Notes: generated by a model not told the origin, from the letters alone. 64,000 nucleotides of DNA from an uncultured Gammaproteobacteria bacterium (GCA_964588165.1 CAZPMS010000006.1:3425-67424), one strand, 5' to 3'; positions 7,270 to 47,928 are shown, counted from the first letter of the stretch. Program-made: numbers and translations.

Positions 7270-7318
7270 AGCTATCTGCGGGTAATCTGGCGGGTAATCT
7301 GTGTTATCTGCGACAGCA
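7270..7318 (+). promoter_or_regulatory. phased array of four ATCTGYG heptamers
   Basis: tATCTGCGggtaATCTGGCgggtaATCTGTGttATCTGCGa with about 10-12 bp spacing, directly upstream of a TTGACA at 7319. Confidence 0.5.
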
Positions 7319-7396
7319 TTGACAAACCTGCTATTTTATGATAAGCTGATTTATTAAATTCTTTAACAACACCAACAAAACATAGAGAGGTCTACC

Positions 7397-8260
7397 ATGA
7401 GAAGAAGGTGGATAAAAATTGACGGTACTGATACCGTTATCCGCGGTAAAACGGTAACTTTGAATTTAGAGTTACCGAGTGAATTCCAAAACGTTCACAG
7501 TCGTGATTTGGTGATAAACTGTGATGAAGGAAATGTACTGATTTGTGAAAGGGATGGTATTCACATCGCACCGACCATTGAAGTTTTTCCTGATACTCCT
7601 GATGTTCTTACTTTGGAAGTTAAGGGTAAGCTCATTCATCAACCAACAACAAGGACTGATTCTGCAAAGGAAACCGGCAGAGGAGATCCTTACAAAGTTG
7701 GCGAGCCACAGGTGGAACCGATTTTCGCCGATCCTGATCCGGAAGCTGAAGAAGAAGCAGAACTGGAACAGATTGGTGAAAGAATTACTATCACCCAAGA
7801 AATGCCGGTATACGAAACCACTGAAATCCATCACTTTGAGGCTGAAGAAAATTATTCTGCACGCTTTACTTTCAGGGTGATTGATTCTCGGCCGCTGATC
7901 AAACGTAACGAACTCACTGAGCTTCGGTTTGAGCTACCTGATGGTTTCGGCAAAATCAATGAACATCATCTACCAAAGATTTTGGGAAAGGGCGCCTACG
8001 TTACCGAGTGGCAACAGATAGGCCAAGCCTTAACTGTTTCGGTGAAGACCAAAAAGTCTTCACCCGAGGAAATTACTCTGCGGGTTCGCGGCATGTGTGA
8101 AGGCGAACATACTGAGGAATTCTTCAAAATTGATGTAGAGCCGGAAACTGAAAAGGTTAAGAGAAAAACTCTTATAGCCTTGGCAATACTTCTGCTGATA
8201 GCTGCCAGCTTTGTTTCGGGCATATACATTTCTACTCTTTTCCCTCTGTTATTTCAGTAG
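7397..8260 (+). CDS. hypothetical tail-anchored protein, GC-rich orphan (287 aa)
   Basis: ORF with GAGAGG ribosome-binding site. Acidic soluble domain followed by a single C-terminal transmembrane helix (LIALAILLLIAASFVSGIYI). GC-richer than context. Confidence 0.55.
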   Translation: MRRRWIKIDGTDTVIRGKTVTLNLELPSEFQNVHSRDLVINCDEGNVLICERDGIHIAPTIEVFPDTPDVLTLEVKGKLIHQPTTRTDSAKETGRGDPYKVGEPQVEPIFADPDPEAEEEAELEQIGERITITQEMPVYETTEIHHFEAEENYSARFTFRVIDSRPLIKRNELTELRFELPDGFGKINEHHLPKILGKGAYVTEWQQIGQALTVSVKTKKSSPEEITLRVRGMCEGEHTEEFFKIDVEPETEKVKRKTLIALAILLLIAASFVSGIYISTLFPLLFQ

Positions 8261-8276
8261 ACCAAGTTAATTTCAT

Positions 8277-8312
8277 TCCGTCGGTTAACACTAATAACCG
8301 GCGGTTTTTTAT
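8277..8312 (+). terminator. intrinsic terminator after ORF 7397..8260
   Basis: ccgtcggttaacactaataaccggcgg stem-loop followed by ttttttat. Confidence 0.5.
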
Positions 8313-8343
8313 TTAAAAAAACTTAAAAATAAAAAATAGTAGA

Positions 8344-8408
8344 TAGATATCCGCGGACTATCAGTGATTAATCAGTGATCGTTCCGCGAATATCAGTGAA
8401 TTATCTAT
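8344..8408 (+). promoter_or_regulatory. phased array of ATCCGCG / ATCAGTG(A) heptamers (four to five units)
   Basis: atATCCGCGgactATCAGTGAttaATCAGTGAtcgttccgcgaatATCAGTGAattATCTATG upstream of the promoter at 8416. Confidence 0.5.
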
Positions 8409-8415
8409 GAAAAAC

Positions 8416-8444
8416 TTGACAAAATCAATAAATTATGCTAAATT
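8416..8444 (+). promoter_or_regulatory. sigma70-like promoter TTGACA-17-TAAATT
   Basis: ttgacaaaatcaataaattatgctaaatt; same architecture as 14238..14266. Confidence 0.5.
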
Positions 8445-8515
8445 ACAATGTTAAAAATGTTGTTGAACATTGACAAAAAAACGCTAAACATAGACAAAAC
8501 AAAGGAGTACTGAAA

Positions 8516-10882
8516 ATGGCTACCACCGCAAAAGAAGTAGCTGGCGCAGCCACTGCTACCTCAGCTGCCGCAGCCAGAGAACAATTCCGTTTGGAACTGT
8601 GGCAAGTTTTCCGCGACATTCTTATCGGCAAAGACAAGTGGGTTGATGAAGTTGCCAGAACCCATTACGAAAACCAATTCAAGGAACAGTTTTCGGAGAA
8701 ATACGACCTACTTCTGAAAATGCTTCATCCCGACAACCTAAGTACTACCGACCAGCATTGCCTGGATATGGTGGCCTTGGAACATGCCAAGTTGGCCGAT
8801 AAATCTTTGCACGAAAAGGATACGGCTAAGCTCATACCAGGGATGTTTAAAATCTTCTGCGACAAGTTGGAAGAAGTTATTGACTTGGCTACCGAAGGTG
8901 ATGAGTTTGACGTCATCAAAGCGCACACACTGCTCCGGGACAAACGCTGGATCGGTCAGGGCTTCTGGGCTCAAAGGCTAAAGGAAAACATGGGTGAAAT
9001 TCTCAAGCTGGGTTGGATTTCTGAAGGCCTGAGAAGATTTATCCAATCTCCTATCGTTCATGACTTCATGGAAGGAGCTGAACAGCCTTCCATCGATTTC
9101 TTTGAATGGGCCCAGCAGCATTACAACCTCGCAGCCAAAATACGCAGCGGAGCACCCAGTAATCGCCGTTACAGCAACAACCCCTTCAAAAACTTTTTTG
9201 TAGGGCTGCAGTTGATGATTGGTGTTGCTTGGAACTATCTGATGGTAGGCTTGGGCAAGGTGAACAAGTTAAGGCAACAGAATTGGCACAGGATTGGCAA
9301 AAGGACCTTCTGGACAACCATAATTGTTCTGGGTGTGGTCATTGCTTTCCTGATACTGCTGGGATTAGGAATCCACAACAGCTACTTCAAAAGTACCAAC
9401 TACCTTTGGCTTATTGCGACTGCTGGAATTCTACTGTTCATCATCTTTGCTACACTCAAGATTATTGAGGCTGCACTGGGATTGGCCATCTTCACGGTAC
9501 GCTTGGCTTTTGCTGTTATAGCTAGGCCGTCCCTCTGGACCGTTGAACAAGGCGGTAAGTTTATCTGGCAAGTTGGTACTTGGCCAATTGAATTTGGCTT
9601 TGACGCTATAACCGACACCTTTAAGGGGCTATTAATGTTCTTAGGGGTTGATATTGAGGACATTGAACGGTTAAGCGACAGAAAATTCGAACTGACTGAA
9701 GCTCAGAAATCTGCTTGGGGAGATTTAAGTAAACGAACAGAAGACTTGATGAAAGGCGCCCGCCAAACCAGTATTTTCATCACTGTCGGCTTCAAGTATT
9801 TTGCGGCGCTGATAACTTCCACTTCTTTCCTGATCTTGGCCAAATGGCAGTTTTCTGGCGTAGACTCCAGTGCGGTTTTGAACAATCCGGTTTTTGCTCT
9901 GCTGATTCTTTTCCTGCTGGGCTCGCTTTTCACCCATTTTGGAATCCGTGAATATCAGGCAAGAATTGCTAAAGCTACCGGCTTAGATGACAAAAAGCGC
10001 TCCTGGCGAACAGTTAACCGGATTGCTTTTGCTTGCCTTGTTCTGCTGATTCTGGCTGAATGGCGATTTGAAACCGTCACTAACGTCTGGTACTACAATG
10101 CCAGGCAATCAGCAGCCATAACCGAACACGCAAACCAAGAAAGGAGGCTTAAAACTGCGATTTGGGAAAAAAATCGCAGTGCAACAATTCATCGTGGAGC
10201 AACTGTATTTTTGGCAGAAACCGATACAGAAAACGATGATGAGTCTTACATCGTCATAACCGACTCAACTTTCAGCCGGCCAAATCCGAATGTGGTTTAT
10301 GTGGTAAAACCTGCCCTTGAGCAAAACGGCCAGGTATTTACTATCTACAACCCCATTGACCAAAATGGCATCAGGCAAGCAAGCCTGCAATACGCTGTTT
10401 TGGCTCAATATCTGGATCAGGTTACTCCAAACGAGGCAGCCCGCTTGCTGGCTACCAAAACTGAGGCAAAGCCATCATTAATGCCTAGCTCCATTACTTA
10501 CAATCCGAGCAAAGGCATGGCAGTGCTTGGGTATGTTAACACCGATGATGTTCTTTATCTGGATCCTGTCCAACTGTCACTACTTAGCTGTCCTGAAGAA
10601 AGCGATATTGGACTGAAAGGTACCCATGGTACACCGCGTAGCCGCCATGAAGATTGGCCTGAAGAATTCGTTGATCAGCGCATGCGGCTTGGCGCCCTGT
10701 TGGTGAAATTACCAGCTTATGGTTGGCAACCTTTGTACCAAGCCGAGTCATTCAACATCCGTGGCAGCGGAACAGCCATGGTCTGCGTTAATACGCGGCG
10801 TGGGCTTTTTGGCCTTAACGAAGGAGGAATGGTAGATATTGCTATCAGGCTGGAAACCTATGCCGAAATGGCACAACGTTAA
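8516..10882 (+). CDS. large polytopic membrane protein of unknown function, GC-rich orphan (788 aa)
   Basis: AAGGAG ribosome-binding site. An alpha-helical N-terminal domain of about 225 aa, then about 7 predicted transmembrane helices in two clusters, then a C-terminal soluble domain of about 270 aa. No recognisable family. Confidence 0.6.
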   Translation: MATTAKEVAGAATATSAAAAREQFRLELWQVFRDILIGKDKWVDEVARTHYENQFKEQFSEKYDLLLKMLHPDNLSTTDQHCLDMVALEHAKLADKSLHEKDTAKLIPGMFKIFCDKLEEVIDLATEGDEFDVIKAHTLLRDKRWIGQGFWAQRLKENMGEILKLGWISEGLRRFIQSPIVHDFMEGAEQPSIDFFEWAQQHYNLAAKIRSGAPSNRRYSNNPFKNFFVGLQLMIGVAWNYLMVGLGKVNKLRQQNWHRIGKRTFWTTIIVLGVVIAFLILLGLGIHNSYFKSTNYLWLIATAGILLFIIFATLKIIEAALGLAIFTVRLAFAVIARPSLWTVEQGGKFIWQVGTWPIEFGFDAITDTFKGLLMFLGVDIEDIERLSDRKFELTEAQKSAWGDLSKRTEDLMKGARQTSIFITVGFKYFAALITSTSFLILAKWQFSGVDSSAVLNNPVFALLILFLLGSLFTHFGIREYQARIAKATGLDDKKRSWRTVNRIAFACLVLLILAEWRFETVTNVWYYNARQSAAITEHANQERRLKTAIWEKNRSATIHRGATVFLAETDTENDDESYIVITDSTFSRPNPNVVYVVKPALEQNGQVFTIYNPIDQNGIRQASLQYAVLAQYLDQVTPNEAARLLATKTEAKPSLMPSSITYNPSKGMAVLGYVNTDDVLYLDPVQLSLLSCPEESDIGLKGTHGTPRSRHEDWPEEFVDQRMRLGALLVKLPAYGWQPLYQAESFNIRGSGTAMVCVNTRRGLFGLNEGGMVDIAIRLETYAEMAQR

Positions 10883-10891
10883 CAACAAACA

Positions 10892-10931
10892 ACCCCTTAT
10901 CATTTTTTCAAAATGATAAGGGGTTTTCTTT
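10892..10931. terminator. bidirectional intrinsic terminator between convergent ORF 8516..10882 and dnaJ
   Basis: Perfect 14-bp inverted repeat ccccttatcatttt/aaaatgataagggg with T-runs on both sides. Confidence 0.7.
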
Positions 10932-10945
10932 TAAATAAATTTATT

Positions 10946-10976
10946 CTACAAACTACCAACTACAACCTACTCACTA
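10946..10976. repeat. T-family repeat, copy 4, abutting the dnaJ stop
   Basis: ctacaaactaccaactacaacctactcacta. Confidence 0.5.
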
Positions 10977-10978
10977 TA

Positions 10979-12097
10979 TTATAATCCTTCTTTTTCTAAA
11001 TCTTCCAATAACTTCTTTTGCTTCCGGCTTAAATTATCAGGCACTTCTACCTTTACTTCTACAATTAAGTCTCCCCTGCCTCGGCCTCTTAATTTATGGG
11101 AGCCTTTATTTTTAATATTAAATTGGCGTCCAGTTGGCGTACCAGCCGGAATTTTTAAACTTACTTTGCCGTCTAAGGTTTCTATCTGGACTTTATCGCC
11201 CAAACTGGCTTGAGAAAATTTAATGGTTTTAGTTGTATGCAAATTATCGCCTTCTCTGTTAAATATTTTATGGGGCAAAACCCTAACTGTTATATATAAA
11301 TCTCCGGCTGTGGAACCTTTTAAGCCAGCTTCGCCTTTACTGGTTAGCCTTACAGTTTCCCCGGTAGAAATTCCGGCCGGAATACCAACTTTAACCCTTT
11401 CTTTGCCTCTTACTATACCATTACCGTGGCACTTAGCACATTCTTTTTCCGGTTTTTTACCTTCACCCATGCAGGCTTCGCAAACAGCTGCTGTCCTAAA
11501 AGTGCCAAAAAAAGTATTTTGAGTTTTATTTACCTGCCCGGAACCGCCACAGGTTTTGCATCCGCTGATTTTAGTGCCTGGCTCTGCCCCATTTCCCTTG
11601 CATTTTTCACACAAAATATTTTTAGAAATATCCAAAGTTTTTTCTATACCAAAAATTGCTTCCTCTAAAGTAATATTTATGCCAGCTTCAATGTCTCTGC
11701 CTTTATAATTCCTTCTGGTTGCTTGTTGGCGTTGGCCACCGCCAAAAAAATCGCCAAAGATATCGCCCAAATCATCAATATTAATATTATAACTACCTTG
11801 TCTAAAACCACCTCCACCTGCTCCACCTTGCCTAAAGGCATCAGACCAGTTAAAACCGGCATCATAAGCTGCCTGGCCGCCCATGCCCTCAAAACTGGTT
11901 CCAAACTGATCATACTGCTTTCTTTTTTTATCATTGCCAAGAACCTGATAAGCTTCGTTTACTTCTTTAAACTTATCAGCATTGCCGTTGCCTTTATCCG
12001 GATGATGCTCATGTGCCTTTTTCCTAAAGGCTTTTTTTACTTCATCGGCAGTGGCGCTTTTCTCTACGCCCAATGTTTTATAGTAATCTTTTCCCAT
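10979..12097 (-). CDS. dnaJ: chaperone DnaJ
   Basis: J-domain with HPD (HEHHPDKG), Gly/Phe-rich region, four CxxCxGxG zinc-finger repeats. Confidence 0.92.
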   Translation of the reverse strand: MGKDYYKTLGVEKSATADEVKKAFRKKAHEHHPDKGNGNADKFKEVNEAYQVLGNDKKRKQYDQFGTSFEGMGGQAAYDAGFNWSDAFRQGGAGGGGFRQGSYNINIDDLGDIFGDFFGGGQRQQATRRNYKGRDIEAGINITLEEAIFGIEKTLDISKNILCEKCKGNGAEPGTKISGCKTCGGSGQVNKTQNTFFGTFRTAAVCEACMGEGKKPEKECAKCHGNGIVRGKERVKVGIPAGISTGETVRLTSKGEAGLKGSTAGDLYITVRVLPHKIFNREGDNLHTTKTIKFSQASLGDKVQIETLDGKVSLKIPAGTPTGRQFNIKNKGSHKLRGRGRGDLIVEVKVEVPDNLSRKQKKLLEDLEKEGL

Positions 12098-12149
12098 TAT
12101 AATATGTTAAGCCGACGGTTTTTAAACCGCCGGCCTGAACGTTTATTTA

Positions 12150-14084
12150 TTATTTATCTTCCTTGTCATCCGAAGAGGATGATTCCTTTACTTCTTCAAC
12201 TTCTGCTTCCACAGGTTCGTCTTTCTTTTCTTCTGATTGGTTTTCTTGACCTTCCTGACCTTCAGTTGGCTGTGCCTGCTCTTGCTGTTGTTTATACATG
12301 CTTTCACCAATTTTCTGGACAGTCTGGTTCATATCTTCCAAAGCCTTGTTAATAACTTCAGCATCTTCGCCATCTTTAACCTTTTTTAAGGCATCCATTT
12401 TTTCGGTTACTTCGGTTTTTACATCTTCCGGAACCTTATCAGCTGATTCCTTAAGTAGTTTTTCTGTTTGGAAGATTACTGAATCGGCATTGTTTTTAGC
12501 ATCAATTAAATCCTTTTTCTTTTTATCATCATCAGCATGAAGTTCAGCATCCTTTTTCATCTTTTCTACTTCATCTTTAGAAAGTCCGGATGAAGCGGTA
12601 ATGGTAATTGACTGTTCTTTACCTGTGGCTTTATCTTGCGCCTTAACGCTTAAAATGCCGTTGGCATCTATATCAAAGGTAACTTCCACTTGAGGAACGC
12701 CCCTTGGTGCCGGCGGAATTCCGGAAAGGATAAATCTGCCTAAAGTTTTATTATCTTGGGCCATTTCTCTTTCGCCCTGTAAAACATTAATTTCTACTGA
12801 TGACTGGTTATCGGCCGCAGTAGAAAAAATTTGTGTTTTAGAAGTTGGGATGGTGGTATTCTTTTCTATTAACGGAGTCCTTACGCCACCTAAGGTTTCT
12901 AAGCCTAGAGTTAAAGGAGTTACATCCAATAACAGCACATCTTTAACATCGCCTTGCAAAACACCAGCCTGGACTGCAGCTCCAAGTGCTACTACCTCGT
13001 CTGGATTAACTGAAATATTTGGCTTTTTGCCAAAATATTCCTCTACCTTCTTTAATACTAAAGGCATTCTGGTCATGCCGCCAACTAAAATTATTTCGTC
13101 TATATCTTCTTTTTTAAAGCCGGAATCTTTTATTGCTAATTCAACCGCTTTAAACGATTGTTCAACTAACTCTGTAGTTAACTCATCAAGTTTAGCTCTG
13201 GTTAATTTCATTACCAAATGTTTTGGCCCTGCCTGATCGGTTGTTATAAACGGCTGATTAATTTCAGTTTCAGTGGAAGTAGAAAGTTCTACCTTGGCTT
13301 TTTCTGCGGCTTCTTTAACTCTTTGCATGGCCATGGCGTCACCGGTTAAATCTATACCCTGGTCTTTTTTGAATTCAGCAATAATCCAGTTAATAACCTT
13401 CTGGTCAAAGTCATCACCACCTAAATGAGTATCGCCATTGGTGGATTTAACTTCTACAGTATCTTCAGAAACATCTAAAATAGAAATATCAAAAGTTCCG
13501 CCGCCAAGGTCATAAACTGCCAGCTGCTGATTTTTCTTTTTATCAAAACCATAAGCCAAAGCAGCGGCTGTTGGTTCATTAACAATACGCTTTACTTTAA
13601 AACCGGCAATTTCTCCTGCATCCTTTGTGGCTTGACGCTGTGAATCGCTAAAATAAGCCGGTACGGTAATAATGGCTTCTTCAATTTTTTCACCCAGTTT
13701 CTCTTCAGCATCAGCTTTTAGCTTCTGCAAAATCATGGCCGAAATTTCTTGGGGCGTATATTCCTTATCTCCCATTTTAACTTTAACGCCAGCACCTGAT
13801 TTGACGATTTTATAAGGCATGGTTTTAATGTCGTCTTGGACTTCTTTATCTTCAAACTTTCGTCCAATTAAACGTTTTATGGAAAACAAAGTACTTTCCG
13901 GATTGGTGACGGCTTGCCTTTTAGCCAGTTGGCCGGCTAACCTTTCGTTGGTTTTGGAAACAGCCACCATAGATGGGGTGGTTCTGTTGCCTTCTTTGTT
14001 TTCTAATATTTTTGGCTGTCCGCCTTCCATAACAGCCATGGCTGAATTTGTTGTTCCTAGATCAATACCTAATATTTTTGGCAT
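12150..14084 (-). CDS. dnaK: chaperone DnaK (Hsp70)
   Basis: [16 protein letters not shown] and Hsp70 signatures over the full length (644 aa). Confidence 0.95.
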
Positions 14085-14180
14085 ATTTTTATTATTAATT
14101 ATTAATAATTGATGATTAATGACTTATGATCATACTTATAATTAATTGATCATAAATCATAGTCCATAAATTAATTTCAA

Positions 14181-14224
14181 TATCTGCGAATAATCTGCGC
14201 GTCATCTGTGACCAATCTGCGTAT
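14181..14224 (+). promoter_or_regulatory. phased array of four ATCTGYG heptamers
   Basis: atATCTGCGaataATCTGCGcgtcATCTGTGaccaATCTGCGt upstream of the promoter at 14238. Confidence 0.5.
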
Positions 14225-14237
14225 CTCTTATTAACTA

Positions 14238-14266
14238 TTGACAAATCCTGTAACTGTTGTTAAATT
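14238..14266 (+). promoter_or_regulatory. sigma70-like promoter TTGACA-17-TAAATT
   Basis: ttgacaaatcctgtaactgttgttaaatt. Confidence 0.5.
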
Positions 14267-14306
14267 AACTTGAAATGTTCAACAAAACTTAACAAGGAGA
14301 TATCTG

Positions 14307-14762
14307 ATGGACCAGCATGTATTTACTTTGAAAGGACGCTTCTGGTGCCTTGGAGGCCTTAGCGTTCATAGGGCTTTATTAAGGCCAGCTGACTACCTGC
14401 AAGATCCTAGGCCGACTCTGGGCGAAATGACCAAGGCATTCTTTAACCTGATGCATCTGAAACTTGGCAGGCTCGAACTTCCTATCCAAAAGGGTGGCCA
14501 TGGAGAAATCTGGATTTTTTATCCTAATGGATCTGGATTTAAAATTGAATTCAGGGAAGGGAAATTATGCCTCATCCGTTTTGGCAAATTCAGTGATGAT
14601 AGTCTGGATGTAAAATATCATGAAAATATTCTCGCCAAAATACCAATAGGCTCCCTGCCTCCAGAAGCAATAAAACAAGATTTTGTGCTTGACAATGGAA
14701 TGATACTGAATCACGATTCAATATCTCAACTAGGAACTGTCTTTACTGGCCTAGCCGCCTAA
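14307..14762 (+). CDS. hypothetical protein, GC-rich orphan (151 aa), inserted antisense within the hrcA-grpE-dnaK-dnaJ cluster
   Basis: ORF with AGGAG ribosome-binding site and its own consensus promoter plus ATCTGCG array. Confidence 0.5.
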   Translation: MDQHVFTLKGRFWCLGGLSVHRALLRPADYLQDPRPTLGEMTKAFFNLMHLKLGRLELPIQKGGHGEIWIFYPNGSGFKIEFREGKLCLIRFGKFSDDSLDVKYHENILAKIPIGSLPPEAIKQDFVLDNGMILNHDSISQLGTVFTGLAA

Positions 14763-14812
14763 AGTACATTTTCATCCCAATGAAGAGTTTAACCGCTCTT
14801 CATTTTTTTTCC

Positions 14813-15148
14813 TTAAAATCCTTTCAATTTTTCTATAAAAGAACTATCTTTATTAATTAACTGATGAATCTCTAAAACATTATCAGAAATAATTTCTGGC
14901 TCCAATGTATAATCCATAACTTCTATTGCTGAAAGATCTGTTAAAATTGCATTGCCGATTAAACCGTGCGGCATGGTCATAACCCTTACAATAATACTGG
15001 AAGAACAGTGGCCACAGGTTAAATATGCCAAAAAGCCTTGTTCGTTTTCATCCAATATTTCAATCTTGCCTTCGGTATAATCATGGTTGCAAACCGGGCA
15101 TTTTTGAACCAATTTCAAACTAAATTGTCCTTTTTGACTGTTATTCAT
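14813..15148 (-). CDS. hypothetical zinc-ribbon protein (111 aa)
   Basis: CPVCNH...CGHC cysteine pairs; lies in the heat-shock gene cluster. Confidence 0.45.
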   Translation of the reverse strand: MNNSQKGQFSLKLVQKCPVCNHDYTEGKIEILDENEQGFLAYLTCGHCSSSIIVRVMTMPHGLIGNAILTDLSAIEVMDYTLEPEIISDNVLEIHQLINKDSSFIEKLKGF

Positions 15149-15152
15149 TTAT

Positions 15153-15584
15153 TTATTTCTTATTTTTCTTTTTAATTTCCACTTTAACGCTTTTTGGTTT
15201 TAATTTCTCTTGTTTTGGAATACTTATCTTTAAAATACCGTCTTCATATTCTGCCTTGGCCTTATCACCGCTAACTGAAACAGGCAAAGCCACGCTCCTA
15301 TGGAATGAACCGGTTCTGACTTCTTTTCTATAATAACTTTTATCATCAATTTCAGTCTTTTTTTCAATTTTACCATCCATGGTCAAAATATCATTTTCTA
15401 CCGTGATATTTACATCCTCTGGCTTAACTCCTACAAGTGGCGCTTCTACTATTAAATTTTTTTCATCTTGATAAATATCCAAAGATGGTGCAAAACCACT
15501 CTGTCTGTTACCAGGAAAATTGGTTATAAATTTGTCCATTTCATCAAATGGTTCAAAGAATGGACTCCATCTTATTAATGTCAT
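15153..15584 (-). CDS. Hsp20/alpha-crystallin family small heat-shock protein
   Basis: 143 aa; alpha-crystallin domain ending ...GILKISIPK. Confidence 0.8.
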   Translation of the reverse strand: MTLIRWSPFFEPFDEMDKFITNFPGNRQSGFAPSLDIYQDEKNLIVEAPLVGVKPEDVNITVENDILTMDGKIEKKTEIDDKSYYRKEVRTGSFHRSVALPVSVSGDKAKAEYEDGILKISIPKQEKLKPKSVKVEIKKKNKK

Positions 15585-15602
15585 AGGATTATTAACTATT
15601 AA

Positions 15603-16106
15603 TTATTTTTTTGAAACGATAACTTGGGCTGGCTGTAAAACACTATCCTTTATTTTGTAGCCAGACTTTATCTCTTTAATTATGATATTATCAGTTTGAT
15701 CTGACTCTTCCTGGCCAACTGCCTCATGAAATTCGGGATTAAATTCTTCTCCCACTGTTTTTATCTCTTCAATAGCAAACCTTTTTAAAAATTGATCAAA
15801 TTCAGCTCTAATATGTCCAAGACCCTCTAACCATTCTTGGTCTGACTTTTCTTTAGGTTGATGGTTTAAGGCTAATTTAAAATGGTCATAAATTGTTAAA
15901 ACTTCCAATATAATTCCGGCGGTAGAATATTCAACCAGATCTTTTACTTTTTTATCTGATTCTTTTTTTAGATTTTCATAATCTGCCTGAGCTCTTTTCC
16001 AGCCATTTAAATATTCTTCACATTTAGACTGAAGCTCCTCAACTTTATCCTGATCCTTGTTTATGGATCCTTGTTTATGAATTTTATTTTTTTTTGTCTT
16101 TTCCAT
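15603..16106 (-). CDS. grpE: nucleotide exchange factor GrpE
   Basis: Coiled N-terminus and a C-terminal GYKIKDSVLQPAQVIV motif. Confidence 0.8.
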   Translation of the reverse strand: MEKTKKNKIHKQGSINKDQDKVEELQSKCEEYLNGWKRAQADYENLKKESDKKVKDLVEYSTAGIILEVLTIYDHFKLALNHQPKEKSDQEWLEGLGHIRAEFDQFLKRFAIEEIKTVGEEFNPEFHEAVGQEESDQTDNIIIKEIKSGYKIKDSVLQPAQVIVSKK

Positions 16107-16114
16107 TTTACCAA

Positions 16115-16804
16115 TTACTTATTACTAGTCACTAAATTAATTAAACCTAAATTTTTCTCATAATCCATTCTTATGGGCCCCAGGATTCCTAAAAGGCCAG
16201 TTTGCTTATTTAATTGCCATCTGCCTATAACACTGCTGCAATCTTGCCCAAAAGGATTTTCGGAACCTATCAATACTTGGGTTTGGCTAATGTCTTCAAA
16301 AATATCGGAAACTACTTGTTCTAAATGGTCAATTATTAAACTAATATTATAAACCATCTCTGTTTGTTTAAATTCCGGCTGCGAAAATAAGTTAGAAATG
16401 CCGGTATAATATATATTACTGTCTGAGAAAGCCACAATCACGGCATTATTGGAAAACTCAGCCATTTTTTTAGCAATTGACTTTATTGACTGTTCAACTG
16501 ACTCTTTTTTAAAAATATTAATTATTTTTTGAATTTCTTTTTGCTCGGTTGAATTTATTTTGCCATCCTTAATATGATTTTCTAAAAAATACTTGTAGCC
16601 TTTTTCGGTAGGAATTCTGCCGGCCGAAGTATGTGGCTGGATAATATAACCCTCTTTTTCTAAATCAGCCATTTCGTTCCTAATGGTAGCTGAAGAAACT
16701 CCCAGTTTGGATTTATCTTCCAATAATTTTGAACCTACCGGGCTGGCTTGTTTAATATACTGTTTAATTATTTGGCTAAGTAAAGCCTTTTTTCTCTCTT
16801 CCAT
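16115..16804 (-). CDS. hrcA: heat-inducible transcription repressor HrcA (short form, 229 aa)
   Basis: N-terminal winged-helix region (LLSQIIKQYIKQASPVGSKLL...SSATIRNEMADLE); a CIRCE operator lies immediately upstream. Confidence 0.8.
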   Translation of the reverse strand: MEERKKALLSQIIKQYIKQASPVGSKLLEDKSKLGVSSATIRNEMADLEKEGYIIQPHTSAGRIPTEKGYKYFLENHIKDGKINSTEQKEIQKIINIFKKESVEQSIKSIAKKMAEFSNNAVIVAFSDSNIYYTGISNLFSQPEFKQTEMVYNISLIIDHLEQVVSDIFEDISQTQVLIGSENPFGQDCSSVIGRWQLNKQTGLLGILGPIRMDYEKNLGLINLVTSNK

Positions 16805-18151: not shown

Positions 18152-18261
18152 TTTTCAAAAATTCTAAGCGCTAAATCTTAAATACTAAACATTTAATTAA
18201 TTAGAATTTTGAACATTTGAATTTGTTTAGAATTTAGAATTTAGAAATTATGATTTAACAA

Positions 18262-19497
18262 TTATTCATGTCTCAAGGCTTCTATAGGATCTAATTTTGC
18301 CGCCTTTTTAGCAGGGAAATAACCGAATATTAAACCAATAGCGCAAGAAACAACAAAACCTACAATAACTGACGAAGGAGTTACAACATAATTCCAACTA
18401 TATCCTAAATAATTAGCCACCATGGCTACAGCTCCAGAAAATATAGAGCCAAATAAAATTCCTGTTATTCCGCCAAGGATTGTAATAATAATAGCCTCTA
18501 TTAAAAACTGGCTTAATAAATTTTGTTTTGTGGCTCCAACAGCTTTTCTTAAGCCTATTTCTTTGGTTCTTTCTGTGACTGAAACATACATTATATTCAT
18601 AATGCCTATCCCGCCAACTAATAACGATATGGCAGCAATAGCTGCTAAGAAAAATTTAAGCGCATCGGTTATCATAGTTAACATTTCCAAAGCTTCTGCC
18701 TGATTCCTGACTTCAAAATCATCCTCTTTAGGATTTTTAATGCTATGCCTGTCTCTTATTACCTGATTAATTGCTTCGGTGGCAATTTCCATATTTTGGC
18801 TGTTATCTATTTTAGCCCTGATTAAACTAACATGGTTTATGCCCAATAAAAGCTTTTGGGCCGTTTTAAGCGGAATAAAAACATGTTCGTCTACACTTTC
18901 AAAAGCTACAGTTCCTCTTTCCTTCATTACTCCAATTACTTCAAAACTTTCCCGCTTAATTTTTATTTTATGCCCTATGGGGTCTTCGTCCTCAAATAAT
19001 TCTTTAGCTGCTTGGAAACCCAAAACCGCCACCCTAGAAATTCCCTTTTCTTCTTGCTCAGAAAAAAAATGGCCGTTTATAACAGCCGTATCTTCTATAT
19101 CTAAATAGCTTGCAGTGGTGCCTACAAAAGTTGTATCTAATTTCTGATTCTGCCAAGAAAGAGTTTCTATTCCCCTAACAAATGAGGTGGCCGCTAAAAC
19201 TTCCGGTACTTGCCTGGCTATAGCCAAGCCATCTTCATATTTTAAAGTTGTAACTGTTATGCCAAAAGCAGCAGCCGGCGGCCCATCATCAGAGGCATTG
19301 CCCGGCATAACGCTTAATAAATTAGAGCCTACTTTTTCTATTTGAGATAATATTAAACTCTGGGCTCCGGCCCCAACAGACATAATAATAATTACCGCCG
19401 AAATGCCAATAATAATCCCTAACATAGTTAGGGCACTTCTGGTTTTATTCGTTTTTAAACCAATAAAAGAAATATTGATTATGCCTCTTAAATTCAT
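18262..19497 (-). CDS. ABC transporter permease, FtsX/MacB-like (paralogue)
   Basis: Same architecture as the neighbouring permease; 411 aa. Confidence 0.75.
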   Translation of the reverse strand: MNLRGIINISFIGLKTNKTRSALTMLGIIIGISAVIIIMSVGAGAQSLILSQIEKVGSNLLSVMPGNASDDGPPAAAFGITVTTLKYEDGLAIARQVPEVLAATSFVRGIETLSWQNQKLDTTFVGTTASYLDIEDTAVINGHFFSEQEEKGISRVAVLGFQAAKELFEDEDPIGHKIKIKRESFEVIGVMKERGTVAFESVDEHVFIPLKTAQKLLLGINHVSLIRAKIDNSQNMEIATEAINQVIRDRHSIKNPKEDDFEVRNQAEALEMLTMITDALKFFLAAIAAISLLVGGIGIMNIMYVSVTERTKEIGLRKAVGATKQNLLSQFLIEAIIITILGGITGILFGSIFSGAVAMVANYLGYSWNYVVTPSSVIVGFVVSCAIGLIFGYFPAKKAAKLDPIEALRHE

Positions 19498-29581: not shown

Positions 29582-30061
29582 TTATACTTTTAATTTTTCT
29601 TTCACTTTATTTACAACATCTTCTAATTTCCAGTCGCTTTTAATTAAATAATCATAGGCGCCACTTTCTAACATTTCAGCAATCTTTTCCCTATCATTTA
29701 AAACTGTTAATACTATTACCTGGACTTTACTACCCCATGTATCTTTTCTTAATTCCTTTAACATCTTTACTCCGTTCATCTTCGGCATAATAATATCTAA
29801 CAAGATAATATCAGGATGCTCTTTAAATGCAATTTCTAACCCTTCCTGGCCGTTTTTTGCCTGAAAAACCCCGAAGCCGTCAATCTTTGGCATAACCAGA
29901 TCTAAAAAAAGCAAATCAAACTTTTCACTTTTTAACAAATTTAATATTTCTTCACCATTATAAGCAACTTTTACATCAAAACCGGCACTTTTTAGTTTTA
30001 ATTCCAAAGCTTTAGCCATGGGCTTTTCATCTTCTCCTATTAAAATTTTCTTATTTGGCAT
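29582..30061 (-). CDS. stand-alone response-regulator receiver domain with internal duplication
   Basis: KILIGEDE acidic pocket; two tandem beta3-like segments (DLLFLDLVMPKIDG and DIILLDIIMPKMNG); VIVLT beta4; 159 aa versus a typical ~120. Confidence 0.7.
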   Translation of the reverse strand: MPNKKILIGEDEKPMAKALELKLKSAGFDVKVAYNGEEILNLLKSEKFDLLFLDLVMPKIDGFGVFQAKNGQEGLEIAFKEHPDIILLDIIMPKMNGVKMLKELRKDTWGSKVQVIVLTVLNDREKIAEMLESGAYDYLIKSDWKLEDVVNKVKEKLKV

Positions 30062-36139: not shown

Positions 36140-36162
36140 AATATGATGATTGAAAACTGTTG

Positions 36163-36186
36163 ATTGATGATTGATGAATAATGATT
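36163..36186. repeat. leader motif TTGATGAATAATGATT, one of three exact copies
   Basis: Identical 16-mer at 36166, 42101 and 47829, each within about 30 nt upstream of a minus-strand start codon (fba, HD hydrolase, rluB). Confidence 0.5.
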
Positions 36187-41063: not shown

Positions 41064-41125
41064 TATCTGCGGAATATCTGCGTGTCATCTGCGCCTGCCC
41101 GCCTATTGCGGGGTCAATCTGCGTT
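41064..41125 (-). promoter_or_regulatory. array of four ATCTGCG heptamers (reads CGCAGAT in the direction of the downstream gene)
   Basis: ttATCTGCGgaatATCTGCGtgtcATCTGCGcctgcccgcctattgcggggtcaATCTGCGtt, ending 15 nt upstream of the ybaK-like start. Confidence 0.5.
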
Positions 41126-41429
41126 ATCTTTTTCCCTTTTTAAATTGAAAACTTTTTTGTTCGCCTAATAACTTTTTAGCAATTAAACGACCTTTAGGTG
41201 TTAGGCTTACTTCTTTAATAAACCACTTATGCTGAGTTCTTTGGCCATAACCGACCATTAAACCCTTATCAATTAATCTATCTATGCTTTTTGAAATTAT
41301 TTTAACCTGTTCTAATTTTGATGGAGTTTTTTTGCCGTTGTAATATTTATGGTAACGGCTGCGTAAAATCTTATTCCTTTGCCCAAAACTTTCTTTAAGT
41401 ATAAATTTTTGTAGGGCTGAAAGCTTCAT
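41124..41429 (-). CDS. hypothetical basic protein (101 aa)
   Basis: ORF overlapping the upstream HD-domain gene by 4 nt (operon). Confidence 0.45.
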   Translation of the reverse strand: MKLSALQKFILKESFGQRNKILRSRYHKYYNGKKTPSKLEQVKIISKSIDRLIDKGLMVGYGQRTQHKWFIKEVSLTPKGRLIAKKLLGEQKSFQFKKGKR

Positions 41430-43506: not shown

Positions 43507-43518
43507 ATTTTACCTCTA

Positions 43519-43921: not shown

Positions 43922-43965
43922 ACGCCATTCCGAGCTTGTCGAGGAATCCCGTTATTCCGGAAAGA
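43922..43965. repeat. H1-family truncated element
   Basis: ccattccgagcttgtcgaggaatcccgttattccgg directly 3' of the GIY-YIG gene. Confidence 0.5.
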
Positions 43966-44236
43966 CGATTTTTAAATTCTTATTAACTCGCTTTATTAAA
44001 TCCAATTTTTTAAAACGACTCCATTTTTTTAACTGTTTTTCTCTATCAATCGCTTCAATAATACTTTCATAACTTTCAAAATAAACTAATTCATCAACAT
44101 TATATTTTTTAGTAAATCCTTTTAATTTTAATTGATGTTCATCTAATCTTCTAGCTAAATCATTGGTAACTCCTATATAAATCACTGTTCTCCTATGATT
44201 CATTAAAAAATAGACGTAAAATTCTTTTTGTAACAC
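43952..44236 (-). CDS. GIY-YIG nuclease family protein (94 aa)
   Basis: FYVYFLMNHRRTVIYIGVTNDLARRLDEH canonical GIY-YIG core. Confidence 0.75.
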   Translation of the reverse strand: MLQKEFYVYFLMNHRRTVIYIGVTNDLARRLDEHQLKLKGFTKKYNVDELVYFESYESIIEAIDREKQLKKWSRFKKLDLIKRVNKNLKIVFPE

Positions 44237-44309
44237 ATTTTAAACTTTCCTACCCTGATACATTTATTAACGGGATCTCTCCACCTTGGTCGAGATGACG
44301 TCTGAGAAA

Positions 44310-45599
44310 CTACGGTTTTAATCTGGTAATCATTCTAGGAAATGGAATTGTTTCCCTAACATGTTTAGTACCGCAGATCCAGCCAACCAGCCTTTCTAAG
44401 CCAACGCCGAATCCGGAATGAGGCACACTACCGTATTTTCTTAAATCCAAATACCATTGGAAATCTTTTATAGGCAATTTGTGTTCTTTAACTCTTTTGA
44501 GTAAAGTGTCATAATCATCCTCACGTTGACTGCCGCCGATAATTTCACCAAAACCTTCTGGGGCTATCATATCATCACAAAGTGCCAACTTGCCGGACTT
44601 ATCGCGCTTCATATAAAAAGCTTTAATGGCTGCCGGCCACTTATCTACAAACACCGGCACATCTGAATCTTTGGTTAATAAAGTCTCATCATCGCCGCCT
44701 AAATCCTCGTTATCTTTAATATCTGATCCAAGTTTTTGAAGTTTTTTTACAGCCTCTTTGTGTGTCATTCTTACAAATGGAGCTTTGATTTTTTTAAGCT
44801 TAGCAGTATCCCGTTCTAAAATCTCTAATTCCTTTTTATTTTCTGAAAGTACCTTTTTAACAATATATGAGACTAACTCTTCCTGGATCTTCATATTTTC
44901 TTCATGTTCAACAAAGGCTGCTTCTGCGTCCATCATCCAAAATTCTGTAAGATGCCTGCGGGTTTTGGATTTCTCGGCTCTAAACACTGGGCCAAAGTCA
45001 AAAACCTTGCCTAACGAAAATATGGCCGCTTCTATATATAACTGTCCTGATTGCGAAAGGTAAGCTTTGCCTAGGTCAAAATAATCCAGTTCAAATAAAG
45101 TTGTGGTGCCCTCACAGGCGTTGGGAGTTAAAATCGGCGAATCAATCTTAATATAGCCCTGGTTATTTAAAAATTCGTAAATTGAGTTTATGATGGTGTT
45201 CCTAACTTTTTGGATGGCCCACTGTTTGTTTGAACGTAGCCATAAATGACGATTATCCAATAAAAAATCCGGTCCATGCTCTTTTTTGGAAATCGGATAT
45301 TCTTCAGCCACCTGGACTAATTCAATATCGCTGACTTGGAGTTCATATTCTTCCTTTTTTGGATGTTTACTTATTTTTCCAGATAATATAGCTGACGATT
45401 CTTGAGTGATTTTCTCAACTTCCTTCCATACCTTGCCAGATACTTCCTTTTTATTAACAATGGCCTGAATAAAACCAGAACCGTCTCTAACCTGTAAAAA
45501 ATAAAGGCTTCCGGAAGATCGGAAGTTATAAATCCAGCCCTGAATTTTTGCTTCTTTACCCTCAAATTCAGAAGCTTTCGTAATTGTAATTTTTTCCAT
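44310..45599 (-). CDS. asnS: asparaginyl-tRNA synthetase
   Basis: 429 aa; N-terminal OB fold; class IIb motifs FRAEKSKTRRHLTEFWMMDAE and GFGVGLERL. Confidence 0.85.
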   Translation of the reverse strand: MEKITITKASEFEGKEAKIQGWIYNFRSSGSLYFLQVRDGSGFIQAIVNKKEVSGKVWKEVEKITQESSAILSGKISKHPKKEEYELQVSDIELVQVAEEYPISKKEHGPDFLLDNRHLWLRSNKQWAIQKVRNTIINSIYEFLNNQGYIKIDSPILTPNACEGTTTLFELDYFDLGKAYLSQSGQLYIEAAIFSLGKVFDFGPVFRAEKSKTRRHLTEFWMMDAEAAFVEHEENMKIQEELVSYIVKKVLSENKKELEILERDTAKLKKIKAPFVRMTHKEAVKKLQKLGSDIKDNEDLGGDDETLLTKDSDVPVFVDKWPAAIKAFYMKRDKSGKLALCDDMIAPEGFGEIIGGSQREDDYDTLLKRVKEHKLPIKDFQWYLDLRKYGSVPHSGFGVGLERLVGWICGTKHVRETIPFPRMITRLKP

Positions 45600-45736
45600 A
45601 AGTTGTAGATATTATACTATTTTTTGACTATTTTGTGAAGTTAATGATTGTATTGACTAAACTAAGTTAACGTGTAAAAATATCCCTATTGTACATTACA
45701 AAACATACATCGTTTAACTAGCTGGAGATTAGAACC

Positions 45737-46354
45737 ATGAAGAAAGTTTTTGGAGTCTTAGCCGTTCTTTTATGCTTTCTGCTGTTGGTAGCTACCTTTG
45801 CCTTCCCATTCTGGAACGATAATCGGTTGGCCGTCAAAGAGCGCAGCGAAGCCATTGTAGCTGCTCAGGAATTCACCGTTGAAGGCCAATTGCTGGCTAC
45901 CGTTCACTATTCACTGGAAGGTATTGAAACCAAGGGAGAATTTAACCAGACTTTCATTGAACTGGTAAACCAACAAATTCCCTCCTACAACGACGCCGGC
46001 CAACGGCTGATAACCTATTGCTATATAGCCGGCCAAGAATCGTCTTCACAGCAAGAAATCTTATTGGCCAAACAGAACCTTAAGCCTTGCCAGAATTCGA
46101 TTATGATATTTTTGGCAAATTCCGAAGGGAAAACAAATTGCTACTTGATTATTGATAATTATTGGTCGAGCAACATGCCTGCAATTATGGGAATGTTTAT
46201 GAAGCCGAATACTGGACCGCTAACAGAGACTTTTACAGCTTTGATGATTGGCGCAACAATAAAAATTCCTTCAACTGTTTTATTGACCGGTGGCTGGATT
46301 CCCAATAACCTGGTGTATTTCTCCGATGAACAAATCCCTTATTTAACCAGTTAA
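45737..46354 (+). CDS. hypothetical secreted protein, GC-rich orphan (205 aa)
   Basis: Signal-peptide-like N-terminus, GGAGA ribosome-binding site, GC-richer composition. Confidence 0.5.
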   Translation: MKKVFGVLAVLLCFLLLVATFAFPFWNDNRLAVKERSEAIVAAQEFTVEGQLLATVHYSLEGIETKGEFNQTFIELVNQQIPSYNDAGQRLITYCYIAGQESSSQQEILLAKQNLKPCQNSIMIFLANSEGKTNCYLIIDNYWSSNMPAIMGMFMKPNTGPLTETFTALMIGATIKIPSTVLLTGGWIPNNLVYFSDEQIPYLTS

Positions 46355-46371
46355 TTATTTGACCACCTCTA

Positions 46372-46410
46372 TCCGCCAAGCTACTTATGCCTGGCGGTTT
46401 TTATTTTTTT
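46372..46410 (+). terminator. intrinsic terminator after ORF 45737..46354
   Basis: ccgccaagctacttatgcctggcgg followed by tttttattttttt. Confidence 0.55.
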
Positions 46411-46427
46411 ATAAAACTTTTAATTTC

Positions 46428-46558
46428 TTCTGAAGTTAATTCCCGCCAATTTCCAGGCGGTAAATCTTCCATTTTAATGCTACCAACTCTGATTCTTTTC
46501 AAACTGACCACTTCATAGCCTATATTTTCTACCATCCGCCTTATTTGCCTATTCCAGC
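46428..46558 (-). pseudogene. duplicated 3'-terminal fragment of rluB (~130 bp, ~95% identical to 47178..47308)
   Basis: ttaattcccgccaatttccaggcggtaaatcttccattttaatgctaccaactctgattcttttcaaactga.cac.tcatagcctatattttctaccatccgccttatttgcctattccagcc, then unrelated sequence. Confidence 0.75.
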
Positions 46559-46572
46559 CCTATTGACAATAT

Positions 46573-46601
46573 TTTTAATATATGATATTATTTATTATTC
46601 G
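46573..46601 (+). promoter_or_regulatory. sigma70-like promoter TTGACA-17-TATTAT
   Basis: ttgacaatatttttaatatatgatattat upstream of ORF 46683..47096. Confidence 0.45.
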
Positions 46602-46682
46602 ATCTTTCTTTATTGACCATTTAGTACTAATAGTACTAAACTTCAAAAGAGTGAAAAGTGCCAAACCACAGTGAGGGAAATT

Positions 46683-47096
46683 ATGAGGTATCCGAACTCT
46701 TTTCTGAAGAATGGTCCGCTTTATGTGGTCATTCTAGCTGCTCTCGTTTTCGTAACGGGGTTTGTTCAGTACAACAGCGACAGCCATCACTTCAGCATTC
46801 AGCACGAAACTTTCGTCGCAGGCGACAACCAGGCCTCATTGATCGGCTACACAGTTGCTGATCTGGAAAATTATGGGCAACGTTACCTTGAAGCCAAGTA
46901 TCCTGGGACATCCCAACTGCCACGCTTCGTAAACGTGGCATTAGGAATGATACCTGTACTACTTCTTCCACCAAACATTTTTTGGTCGCCAGCAATCATT
47001 CTTACATTTATGCTATGCGGAATCTGCGGAATATTGCTTACCGGAATAATTTCTAACCGCAATATGAATTGCCTCAAACCAACTTTATCACAATAA
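46683..47096 (+). CDS. hypothetical membrane protein, GC-rich orphan (137 aa from ATG 46683; GTG 46671 possible)
   Basis: GAGGGA ribosome-binding site; two to three transmembrane helices; GC-richer; sits between the rluB fragment and intact rluB. Confidence 0.5.
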   Translation: MRYPNSFLKNGPLYVVILAALVFVTGFVQYNSDSHHFSIQHETFVAGDNQASLIGYTVADLENYGQRYLEAKYPGTSQLPRFVNVALGMIPVLLLPPNIFWSPAIILTFMLCGICGILLTGIISNRNMNCLKPTLSQ

Positions 47097-47125
47097 ACAA
47101 TGAGAGGTACAAATTTTCTAAACGA

Positions 47126-47821
47126 TCATCCTCTGAAAGCCTCGGCAAATGCTGAGGCTTTTTCTTTTTCTGTAAGATTACGCCACTTACCGGGCGGTAA
47201 ATCTTCCATTTTAATGCTACCAACTCTGATTCTTTTCAAACTAAGCACCTCATAGCCTATATTTTCTACCATCCGCCTTATTTGCCTATTCCAGCCTTGG
47301 TGGACTACAATTCGTAATTTATTATCCGAAACTCTTAAAATCTTATCGGCCTTGGCAATTCCCTCCCTCAACTTGATGCCCTGTCTCAATTTTTTAATTG
47401 ACTGTTCATTAATTACTTGTTCAGTTTCTACTAAATATTCTTTTTCATGTTTGAACTTGGGATGCATTATTTTATTGGCAAAGTCGCCGTCATTAGTAAG
47501 GATAATCAAACCGGATGATTCTACATCTAACCTGCCAACCGGATAAATTCTTTCTTTAATATCAATCTTTTCTATAATATTATCTCTTTTTGTCTCATCA
47601 GTTGTGCAAATAACACCAACCGGTTTATGGTAAGCAATGTAAATTGATGACTGATGATTAATGATTAATTTTTTTCCGACCTTAACTTCATCAGTCTCAT
47701 CAACCTGGCTACCAAGTTCGGCTATCTCATCATTAATAAAAACCTTGTTTTGTTTTATTAGTTCATCAGCTTGCCTGCGTGAACAGTGTCCGCTTTCGGC
47801 TAAATATTTGTTTATTCTCAT
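47126..47821 (-). CDS. rluB: S4-domain pseudouridine synthase (RluB/RsuA family)
   Basis: N-terminal S4 domain (MRINKYLAESGHCSRRQADELIK) and the catalytic GRLD motif (YPVGRLDVESSGL). Confidence 0.8.
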   Translation of the reverse strand: MRINKYLAESGHCSRRQADELIKQNKVFINDEIAELGSQVDETDEVKVGKKLIINHQSSIYIAYHKPVGVICTTDETKRDNIIEKIDIKERIYPVGRLDVESSGLIILTNDGDFANKIMHPKFKHEKEYLVETEQVINEQSIKKLRQGIKLREGIAKADKILRVSDNKLRIVVHQGWNRQIRRMVENIGYEVLSLKRIRVGSIKMEDLPPGKWRNLTEKEKASAFAEAFRG

Positions 47822-47840
47822 ATTTAATGATTGATGAATA

Positions 47841-47928
47841 ATGATTAATGAATTATCTGTGAGTAATCCCTACCTTCCGGCAGGCAGGCGTGGGTCATCT
47901 GGTGGGTAATCAGTAAATATCTGTGACT
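47841..47928. promoter_or_regulatory. degenerate ATCTGTG / ATCAGTA array
   Basis: attATCTGTGag...tcATCTGGTgggtaATCAGTAaatATCTGTGacttATCCGTGttgaccc. Confidence 0.4.

Follow-up and report, generated by a model that had tools for sequence, protein, structure and literature searches.

Why does the intergenic DNA of one bacterial genome carry the heptamer ATCTGYG in evenly phased direct repeats, several copies at a time, and what might such repeats do? The question is raised by a stretch of 64,000 nucleotides deposited as DNA of an uncultured Gammaproteobacteria bacterium (GCA_964588165.1 CAZPMS010000006.1:3425-67424; hereafter the window), which has a GC content of 35% and carries most of its genes on the minus strand. 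An earlier note on this DNA had described five arrays of the heptamer and read them as multi-site operators for one regulator. All five arrays are present, and three features go beyond that first reading: a degenerate array on the minus strand, an array in front of guaB beyond the right end of the window, and the gain of arrays by insertion. The reading favoured here, to which we assign a probability of roughly 0.6, is that the arrays would serve as multi-site operators, with four to six sites each, for a single oligomerising, sequence-specific DNA-binding protein.

The arrays are labelled A1 to A7, where A1–A5 lie on the plus strand and A7 on the minus strand within the window, and A6 lies beyond its right end. 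The readable part of the genome amounts to 84 kb in total, with 8.7 kb past the right end of the window read via an adjoining gene.

A1, 7274-7312, plus strand: four units, ATCTGCG, ATCTGgCG, ATCTGTG and ATCTGCG, at spacings of 11, 12 and 9 bp
A2, 8349-8409, plus strand: six units, ATCCGCG, ATCAGTG, ATCAGTG, TTCCGCG, ATCAGTG and ATCTATG, at a spacing of 10-11 bp
A3, 14182-14229, plus strand: four units at a spacing of exactly 11 bp, plus a degenerate ATCTCTT
A4, 41065-41132, plus strand: three units at 11 bp, a GC hairpin, a fourth unit and a degenerate ATCTTTT
GC hairpin in A4, 41094-41112: 19 bp long, making a 30-bp gap
A5, 47855-47936, plus strand: six units, ATCTGTG and ATCCCTA, then a GC hairpin, then ATCTGGT, ATCAGTA, ATCTGTG and ATCCGTG, several of them degenerate
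A6, about 71746-71784 in window coordinates (L285 901-939), plus strand: four units, ATCTGTG, ATCTGCG, ATCTGCG and ATCTGTG, with spacers agcc, tat and aacc
A7, 2399-2447, minus strand: a degenerate array of ATCCTCG, ATCTGTG, ATTCGTG, ATCGTGT and ATTGGTG, with spacers cgct, agcc, agc and gtt and a spacing of 10-11 bp

A1 to A6 contain 4, 6, 4, 4, 6 and 4 good units, respectively (several of the six in A5 being degenerate), and degenerate units occupy the promoter-proximal end of A2, A3, A4 and A5. The proposed phasing of about 10–12 bp on one helical face holds: the modal distance between units is 11 bp (range 8-12), and the hairpin-containing gaps of A4 (30 bp) and A5 (31 bp, after the second unit) correspond to about three helical turns, so that the flanking units stay on the same face. 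The description of all units as ATCTGCG or one-base variants of it does not fit A2, whose units sit two bases from ATCTGCG and one base from ATCTGTG. When all 35 units are aligned, the heptamer shows 1.4-2.2 bits at its A, T, C, G and G and 0.4-0.7 at its remaining T and Y, as opposed to 0.05-0.3 bit at each spacer position. A4 illustrates this pattern, since its four perfect copies of ATCTGCG are separated by spacers unrelated to one another. A drifting tandem duplication would lose heptamer and spacer equally, and the fact that only the heptamer is kept indicates selection on the word rather than on the repeat unit. Nor are the arrays unstable tandem repeats, as their sequence is the same in at least five independent metagenome assemblies.

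Chance does not account for this pattern. Exact ATCTGCG occurs 14 times in the window (3.6 expected) and ATCWGYG 33 times (14 expected). Clusters of at least three units at a spacing of 8-14 bp appeared in none of 100 first-order Markov simulations of the window, and a position-weight-matrix scan predicts 0.1 cluster per 64 kb. The earlier note had named phased clusters at similar frequency in coding sequence as the sign of a compositional artefact. No array lies within a gene, and the heptamer is 17-20x denser in intergenic DNA (13% of the window) than in coding DNA; the explanation as a compositional artefact thereby fails.

If the word is under selection, the genes and promoters beside it should be informative. 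The promoters and promoter-like sequences, as read from sequence, are the following:

2337-2365, minus strand: promoter of the orphan gene 1750-2283, TTGACA-N16-TGaTATATT, with A7 33 bp upstream
7319-7347, plus strand: promoter of the orphan gene 7397-8260, TTGACA-N17-(TGa)TAAGCT, after A1
8416-8444, plus strand: promoter of the orphan gene 8516-10882, TTGACA-N17-(TGc)TAAATT, after A2
14238-14266, plus strand: promoter of the orphan gene 14307-14762, TTGACA-N17-(TGt)TAAATT, after A3
41145-41173, plus strand: decayed promoter-like TTGAAA-N17-ATAACT, the sole promoter-like sequence after A4
47937-47965, plus strand: promoter-like TTGACC-N17-ACTATA, its −35 abutted by the last unit of A5
1459-1487 (minus strand), 7319-7347, 8416-8444, 14238-14266, 46563-46591 and 48704-48732 (minus strand): the six near-consensus extended −10 promoters of the window

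Four of the seven arrays (A1–A3 and A7) are followed on the same strand by TTGACA within 45 nt, for which the chance per array is 0.008 (binomial P = 1.7e-7). Between these four arrays and the −35 lie 6-33 bp; only the last unit of A5 directly adjoins its −35. The distance of 5–15 bp previously given for three arrays agrees with the gaps of 6, 6 and 8 bp measured after the last units of A1, A2 and A3. The extended −10 pattern TTGACA-N14-TGnTAnnnT is found six times in the window against an expectation of 0.03, each time before an unannotated GC-rich gene (GC 0.42-0.49 versus 0.35 for the genome). Arrays accompany three of these six promoters, and nothing comparable to them was found at the housekeeping operons of the window. 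A7 and its promoter both lie on the minus strand, which indicates that array orientation follows the promoter and not the direction of replication. An orientation set by replication had been considered while the first five and then six arrays all lay on the lagging-strand side; it is ruled out by A7 and by the inverted arms in a sister genome described below.

The proposed link between arrays and GC-rich orphan genes stands in part. Arrays precede 3 of 8 such genes as opposed to 1 of 56 others (Fisher p = 0.005), yet other targets exist too, since arrays also lie in front of an orphan that is not GC-rich, a non-coding stretch and guaB, and A4 lies within an operon without a working promoter. 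The orphan genes gave no match in Pfam, NCBIfam, PHROGs, PADLOC or PDB, and orf788, one of the antisense orphans near A3, has no homologue among 5.8 billion proteins. The stretch behind A5 extends for about 180 nt without an open reading frame (ORF; 47966-48150) and ends at a terminator-like hairpin (near 48090-48150), which is shared with the convergent gene 48151-48645. This stretch is a candidate small RNA, and Rfam returned no match for it. That no array precedes a housekeeping operon is true inside the window but not beyond it: about 7.7 kb past the right end, A6 ends 2 nt before the ATG of guaB, the gene of IMP dehydrogenase (IMPDH), and about 60-100 nt downstream of its TTGATT-N17-TATAAT promoter. 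The guaB AUG has no Shine-Dalgarno sequence. Adjacency of A4 to the ybaK-like gene, put at 15 nt before its start, is likewise borne out (16 nt), but A4 runs opposite to that gene, and its degenerate ATCTTTT overlaps the stop codon of a neighbouring gene of 101 amino acids (aa).

An operator reading would unite these features as follows. The binder would recognise ATCTGYG (in a looser form ATYNGYG) and bind head-to-tail, with one subunit per helical turn on one DNA face. Each operator would combine the 7-bp word with a free spacer of about 4 bp, in four or six good units followed by weaker extension units towards the promoter. Near-consensus sigma-70 promoters (TTGACA-N16/17-TGnTAnnnT) behind most arrays would drive lineage-specific genes inserted into conserved gene order, and the protein would mainly hold these intrinsically strong promoters in check, through cooperative occupancy that reaches the −35/UP region by way of the degenerate proximal units. 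At guaB, where the array lies in the leader and adjoins the start codon, the protein would instead act as a roadblock. We lean towards repression on account of the strong promoters, the position of the guaB array downstream of its promoter, the A5 unit abutting the −35 and the degenerate units extending towards the −35. Near-consensus promoters with an extended −10 typically belong to genes under repression, not to genes that depend on an activator. An activator role from the −42 to −100 region is possible at A1–A3.

The motif is not confined to one genome. The closest relative found (L286/L287; ENA ERZ27293400 k141_1051400, JGI 3300025150 Ga0210057_1001786; DnaK 88% identical, GC 0.37) carries four clusters of ATCTGTG, ATTTGTG, ATCAGTG and ATCCGYG in a 970-bp intergenic region (L286 1326-2295), where they form two inverted pairs, each of reverse-complement units followed by direct units. 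In the first pair, the arm nearer the promoter points to TTGACA-N17-TAAGAT, behind which lie small orphan ORFs. The second, larger pair (1952-2127) lies upstream of a hairpin and the TTGACA-N16-TATAAT promoter of a 94-aa gene (2296-2580), which a weak Pfam match assigns to an AbrB/MazE-like family. These loci are not orthologous to those of the window. The target of a conserved DNA-binding protein would be expected to persist across species in just this way, even as its locations change. More distant Patescibacteria loci (517 kb) contain no heptamer clusters bar one chance-level match, and none were found in relatives with a GC of 0.48-0.49 (the L288-L292 lineage). A de novo search of these loci for any phased heptamer revealed coding repeats only.

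Comparison with relatives also places the host and bears on the history of the arrays. The 101-aa gene beside A4 belongs to a family present only in Patescibacteria (Parcubacteria, Veblenbacteria, Uhrbacteria), and the closest DnaK sequences (at most 88% identical) are from Patescibacteria near Komeilibacteria. Both findings indicate that the window comes from a genome of the candidate phyla radiation (CPR). Two relatives encode a 101-aa protein with 72% and 91% identity, and in them this gene is separated from the ybaK-like gene by 20 and 4 bp, compared with about 75 bp in the window, where A4 accounts for about 60 bp. Similarly, the genes hrcA-grpE-hsp20-p111-dnaK-dnaJ are contiguous in a dozen relatives, and in the closest of them only 25 bp separate p116, the counterpart of p111, from dnaK. 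In the window, a terminator, orf151 (14307-14762), the orf151 promoter and A3 lie antisense between p111 and dnaK. Compared with these genomes, A4, and A3 together with its orphan gene, are insertions.

More broadly, the window region 10979-16804 differs from its counterparts (L204, L207, L208, L286, L288) in that antisense orf151 interrupts the hrcA-dnaJ operon and two more antisense orphans, orf788 and orf287, follow. In another relative (L288/L289), the dnaK-dnaJ gap and the stretch behind dnaJ also contain unrelated antisense orphans. The operon region may be a hotspot of gene insertion.

The arrays themselves bear traces of copying. A3 and A4 are 84% identical over 38 bp, with related spacers (cgtc/tgtc, acca/gtca) and terminal units (ATCTCTT/ATCTTTT), and A4 and A5 hold a GC hairpin at a similar place within the array. 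This identity beyond the heptamers, together with the common hairpin, suggests that modules were copied. Similar GC-rich hairpins of the CCCGCC...GGCGGG type, four of them, are packed beside tRNA-Asn (48890-49010).

A number of these observations weigh against the operator reading. The readable 84 kb contain no candidate binder and no winged-helix output domain, and the sole two-component protein there (29582-30061) is receiver-only. The intact −35 and the well-conserved upstream units of A1–A3 and A7 are unlike OmpR/PhoB-activated promoters, and the second, inverted arm of the L286 clusters faces no promoter. A4, which lies antisense between two co-transcribed housekeeping genes without a working promoter, is hard to explain as a selected operator, and the likeness of A3 and A4 in spacers and terminal unit points to copying of a module rather than to independently evolved sites. 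In a rival reading, the arrays would be a dispersed copy-and-paste repeat, a small mobile or recombinationally spread module, with or without a promoter, that inserts randomly between genes and has no function for the host. Such a repeat would explain the insertion of A4 and of A3 with promoter and orf151 into otherwise tight operons, the likeness of A3 and A4, the hairpins at the same place in A4 and A5, a 28/31 identity between the A2 promoter and the promoter at 1463-1493, and the confinement of arrays to two closely related genomes. We nevertheless consider it unlikely. The arrays showed none of the features expected of miniature inverted-repeat transposable elements (MITEs) or transposon ends, whether inverted repeats at the termini, duplicated target sites or nearly identical copies; the best match between copies is the 84% over 38 bp, no target-site duplication flanks the A4 insertion, and no array is associated with a transposase. 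Neutral decay of copies would not leave spacers near random and the heptamer conserved, nor does a repeat without function predict that the motif is kept at different loci in a sister species or that arrays hold a consistent orientation and distance to promoters. Mobility is, in any case, compatible with operator function, which remains the best-supported reading by virtue of the conserved heptamer, its phasing, the promoter placement and the sister species.

Two further explanations assign the repeats to other processes. The earlier note had called the arrays iteron-like, and R1 parC, R388 stb and the low-affinity DnaA-box arrays of oriC are likewise built from sets of 4-6 direct repeats, phased and 9-11 bp in size. 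Sites at which the chromosome loads or titrates a protein of replication, partition or the nucleoid (in the manner of parC/ParR, StbA repeats or a DnaA-titrating locus) would suit the high density of seven arrays per 84 kb, which is much for a specific regulon, and viral-contig arrays of the same pattern look like phage or plasmid iterons. This is an improbable explanation, and the term iteron is not supported in its replication sense, as the units measure 11 bp (those of replicon iterons, at 17-22 bp, are longer and occur at a single origin), the loci are dispersed, no rep, par or dnaA gene adjoins any array, and the arrays are tied to and co-oriented with promoters. E. coli guaB is regulated by DnaA, and DnaA boxes were considered as well; TWATCTGYG and TTATCCACA have TTATC in common, but the CACA half is unmatched and canonical boxes occur at chance frequency only. 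An action in RNA, where AUCUGYG or CGCAGAU would be bound by a protein controlling translation or stability like the targets of TRAP or CsrA, is suggested by the position of A6 in the guaB 5' leader directly before an AUG without a Shine-Dalgarno sequence, by A4 and A5, which would be transcribed as CGCAGAU repeats just upstream of minus-strand start codons, and by the frequent location of arrays from other phyla between co-directional genes (among the matches listed). It is nonetheless very improbable: A1, A2, A3 and A7 lie upstream of the −35 and hence outside the downstream mRNA, only A6 is clearly in a leader, both orientations stand side by side in L286, the arrays fold no better than shuffled sequences (z −0.5 to +1.2), and an Rfam search returned no match for them. 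The consensus of RNA polymerase pauses (GG-N8-YG) was also rejected, since the spacer bases do not fit.

Which protein might bind multi-site operators of this design? Our best guess, by analogy, is a winged-helix response regulator of the OmpR/PhoB type. The arrays share with such operators a period of 10-11 bp in which about seven conserved positions are followed by about four variable ones, as well as two or more, typically paired, units with a core and weaker extension units. The core CTGTG(A) of the heptamer arrays resembles the CTGTCA of the E. coli pho box. Where OmpR/PhoB proteins activate, the −35 is usually weak and overlapped, or even replaced, by the proximal site. Sites of ArcA consist of two to five direct repeats with a predominant centre-to-centre distance of 11 bp, occasionally 22 bp (PMC3798270), and weaker distal units are filled cooperatively with mainly repressive effect (PMC3798270, PMC4173790). 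In Streptomyces, the repeat units recognised by PhoP measure 11 nt and number up to six in one operator, where a conserved core is accompanied by poorly conserved extension units that are filled cooperatively (PMC2275107). The PhoP of mycobacteria, which can act as activator and as repressor, occupies DNA with 2, 4 or 6 subunits arranged as tandem dimers, the spacer being 4 bp (PMC11825685). The PHO boxes of the PhoB-PhoP group thus resemble the arrays in their 11-bp unit of about seven conserved and about four variable bases, in operators of two to six units, among which a conserved core is distinguished from degenerate extensions, and in their position at or upstream of the −35; their proteins bind cooperatively and head-to-tail (PMC2275107, PMC11825685). 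They differ in the word, which here is ATCTGYG, in the intact near-consensus −35, in the targets, which here are orphans and guaB instead of phosphate genes, and in the Patescibacteria host. Operators of ArcA share the 11-bp direct repeats and the occasional displacement by whole helical turns, but they overlap the core promoter, whereas most arrays here stop 6-33 bp upstream of the −35, and the word is a different one.

The alternative is a protein of the AbrB/MraZ type. Operators of the MraZ/AbrB fold contain a short word in direct repeats about once per turn, upstream of the promoter. The largest cluster of the sister genome lies upstream of the 94-aa AbrB/MazE-like gene (subject to its weak Pfam match), and the product of this gene is a candidate for the binding protein. 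MraZ boxes, however, are found at one locus (mraZ/dcw), unlike the dispersed arrays, and the readable part of this genome yielded neither a homologue of the sister's gene nor any other AbrB-like gene. The 101-aa protein encoded beside A4 was rejected as the binder because it belongs to a conserved Patescibacteria family whose relatives carry no arrays. The receiver-only protein, for its part, has 159 aa and matches the response-regulator receiver domain in two stretches as if partly duplicated, with no output domain.

Two other groups of elements invite comparison. R1 parC/ParR, R388 stbDRs/StbA and replicon iterons share the phasing of direct repeats in sets, and they too overlap promoters. 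Plasmid centromere repeats occupy one locus beside the gene of their binder, as opposed to at least seven chromosomal loci beside unrelated genes here. Likewise, the genes downstream of the arrays are guaB or orphans without Pfam, PHROG or PADLOC matches, not par or stb genes, and the 11-bp units at seven dispersed loci with no rep gene nearby set the arrays apart from replicon iterons. Putative mobile promoters are similar in that promoter modules recur before unrelated, recently acquired genes, with at least one clear insertion; they differ in that the array copies have little in common beyond the heptamers and promoter hexamers and no mechanism of mobility is visible. A tentative extension of the operator reading, which we regard as doubtful, is that array and consensus promoter together form a clade-specific plug-in cassette. 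Such a cassette would spread by insertion within this Patescibacteria lineage and wire newly acquired orphan genes, and at times a housekeeping gene such as guaB, to the regulon of one lineage-specific, possibly AbrB-type, binder; the minimal genome of an episymbiont would then acquire genes along with a mobile module of operator and promoter.

Transcription factors are very few in CPR bacteria, which cannot be cultured by themselves, and to our knowledge almost nothing is known about their transcriptional regulation. As a type of cis-element, the arrays are conventional. Their value would lie in a defined, testable regulon within a lineage whose regulation is unexplored, namely a putative operator word that has at least seven sites in 84 kb, recurs in a sister species and accompanies strong promoters of genes which are lineage-specific and probably of recent acquisition. 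The insertion history hints that operator-promoter modules enter together with new genes, and if the targets are host-interaction genes, the arrays would offer a first handle on how an episymbiont controls them. A literature search for the heptamer returned primers only, and no paper on Patescibacteria operators turned up.

Beyond the Patescibacteria, a scan of 185,579 species genomes for ATCTGCG-N4-ATCTGCG-N4-ATCTGYG identified at least 119 loci (L006-L124) in many phyla, with metagenome-assembled genomes (MAGs) of Acidobacteriota dominant. Among the matches listed, about 88% are intergenic by a crude gene call, and they often lie between co-directional genes. A control with shuffled heptamers was run on viral contigs, where the real heptamer matched 8 loci and three shuffled ones matched 34, 29 and 2. 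Phased 11-bp arrays thus exist for arbitrary heptamers, and the matches across phyla allow no inference; the idea of a universal ATCTGCG-binding factor was accordingly rejected, given that shuffled heptamers can match as often or more in viral contigs. The eight viral matches resemble coding repeats or else the ordinary iterons of phages or plasmids, and two of them (L125 and L129) were discarded as a coding repeat and a phage iteron-like region. A single Acidobacteriota MAG, MFD02979.bin.2.36 (contigs CAWIWS01, e.g., L071 6994-7248), accounts for 24 of the at least 119 loci. Its intergenic AATCTGCG arrays have spacers grading from TTT/TTC to GCC and sometimes form inverted pairs about 130 bp apart; they appear to be a lineage-specific repeat family that happens to share the heptamer.

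Several observations concern the surroundings of the arrays. The divergent intergenic region between guaA and guaB (L285 1075-1190, about 7.5 kb right of the window) contains TTCGCG-type words, ccgTTCGCGgTTCGCGaaaa ... aaTTCGCGaaatg ... cTTCCGCGaacc, which may constitute a second operator word; TTCCGCGAA also lies inside A2. The guaB gene itself is part of a cluster for de novo purine synthesis that extends over window 49157-64000 and L285 1-21038 and comprises purF, purD, purN, purL, purM, purQ, purC and purE, as well as purB, purA, guaA, guaB and folD. Patescibacteria genomes generally are without nucleotide biosynthesis, and a large de novo purine cluster is unusual for them. At the other side, about 1.4-3.2 kb left of the window (L284 16512-18264), an IS1595-family transposase lies beside a gene for a P63C-domain protein; nearby, the left end of the window has a block of orphan genes as well as the VirD4/HerA-like ATPase (2505-5075). 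Finally, AT-rich 7-bp tandem repeats of a different kind (ATTAATG, TTTAGAA, TGATGAT, TAATGAA and AATTACC) are located directly upstream of several minus-strand gene starts, at window positions 14094-14130, 18226-18265, 36144-36186, 47825-47853 and 56849-56945.

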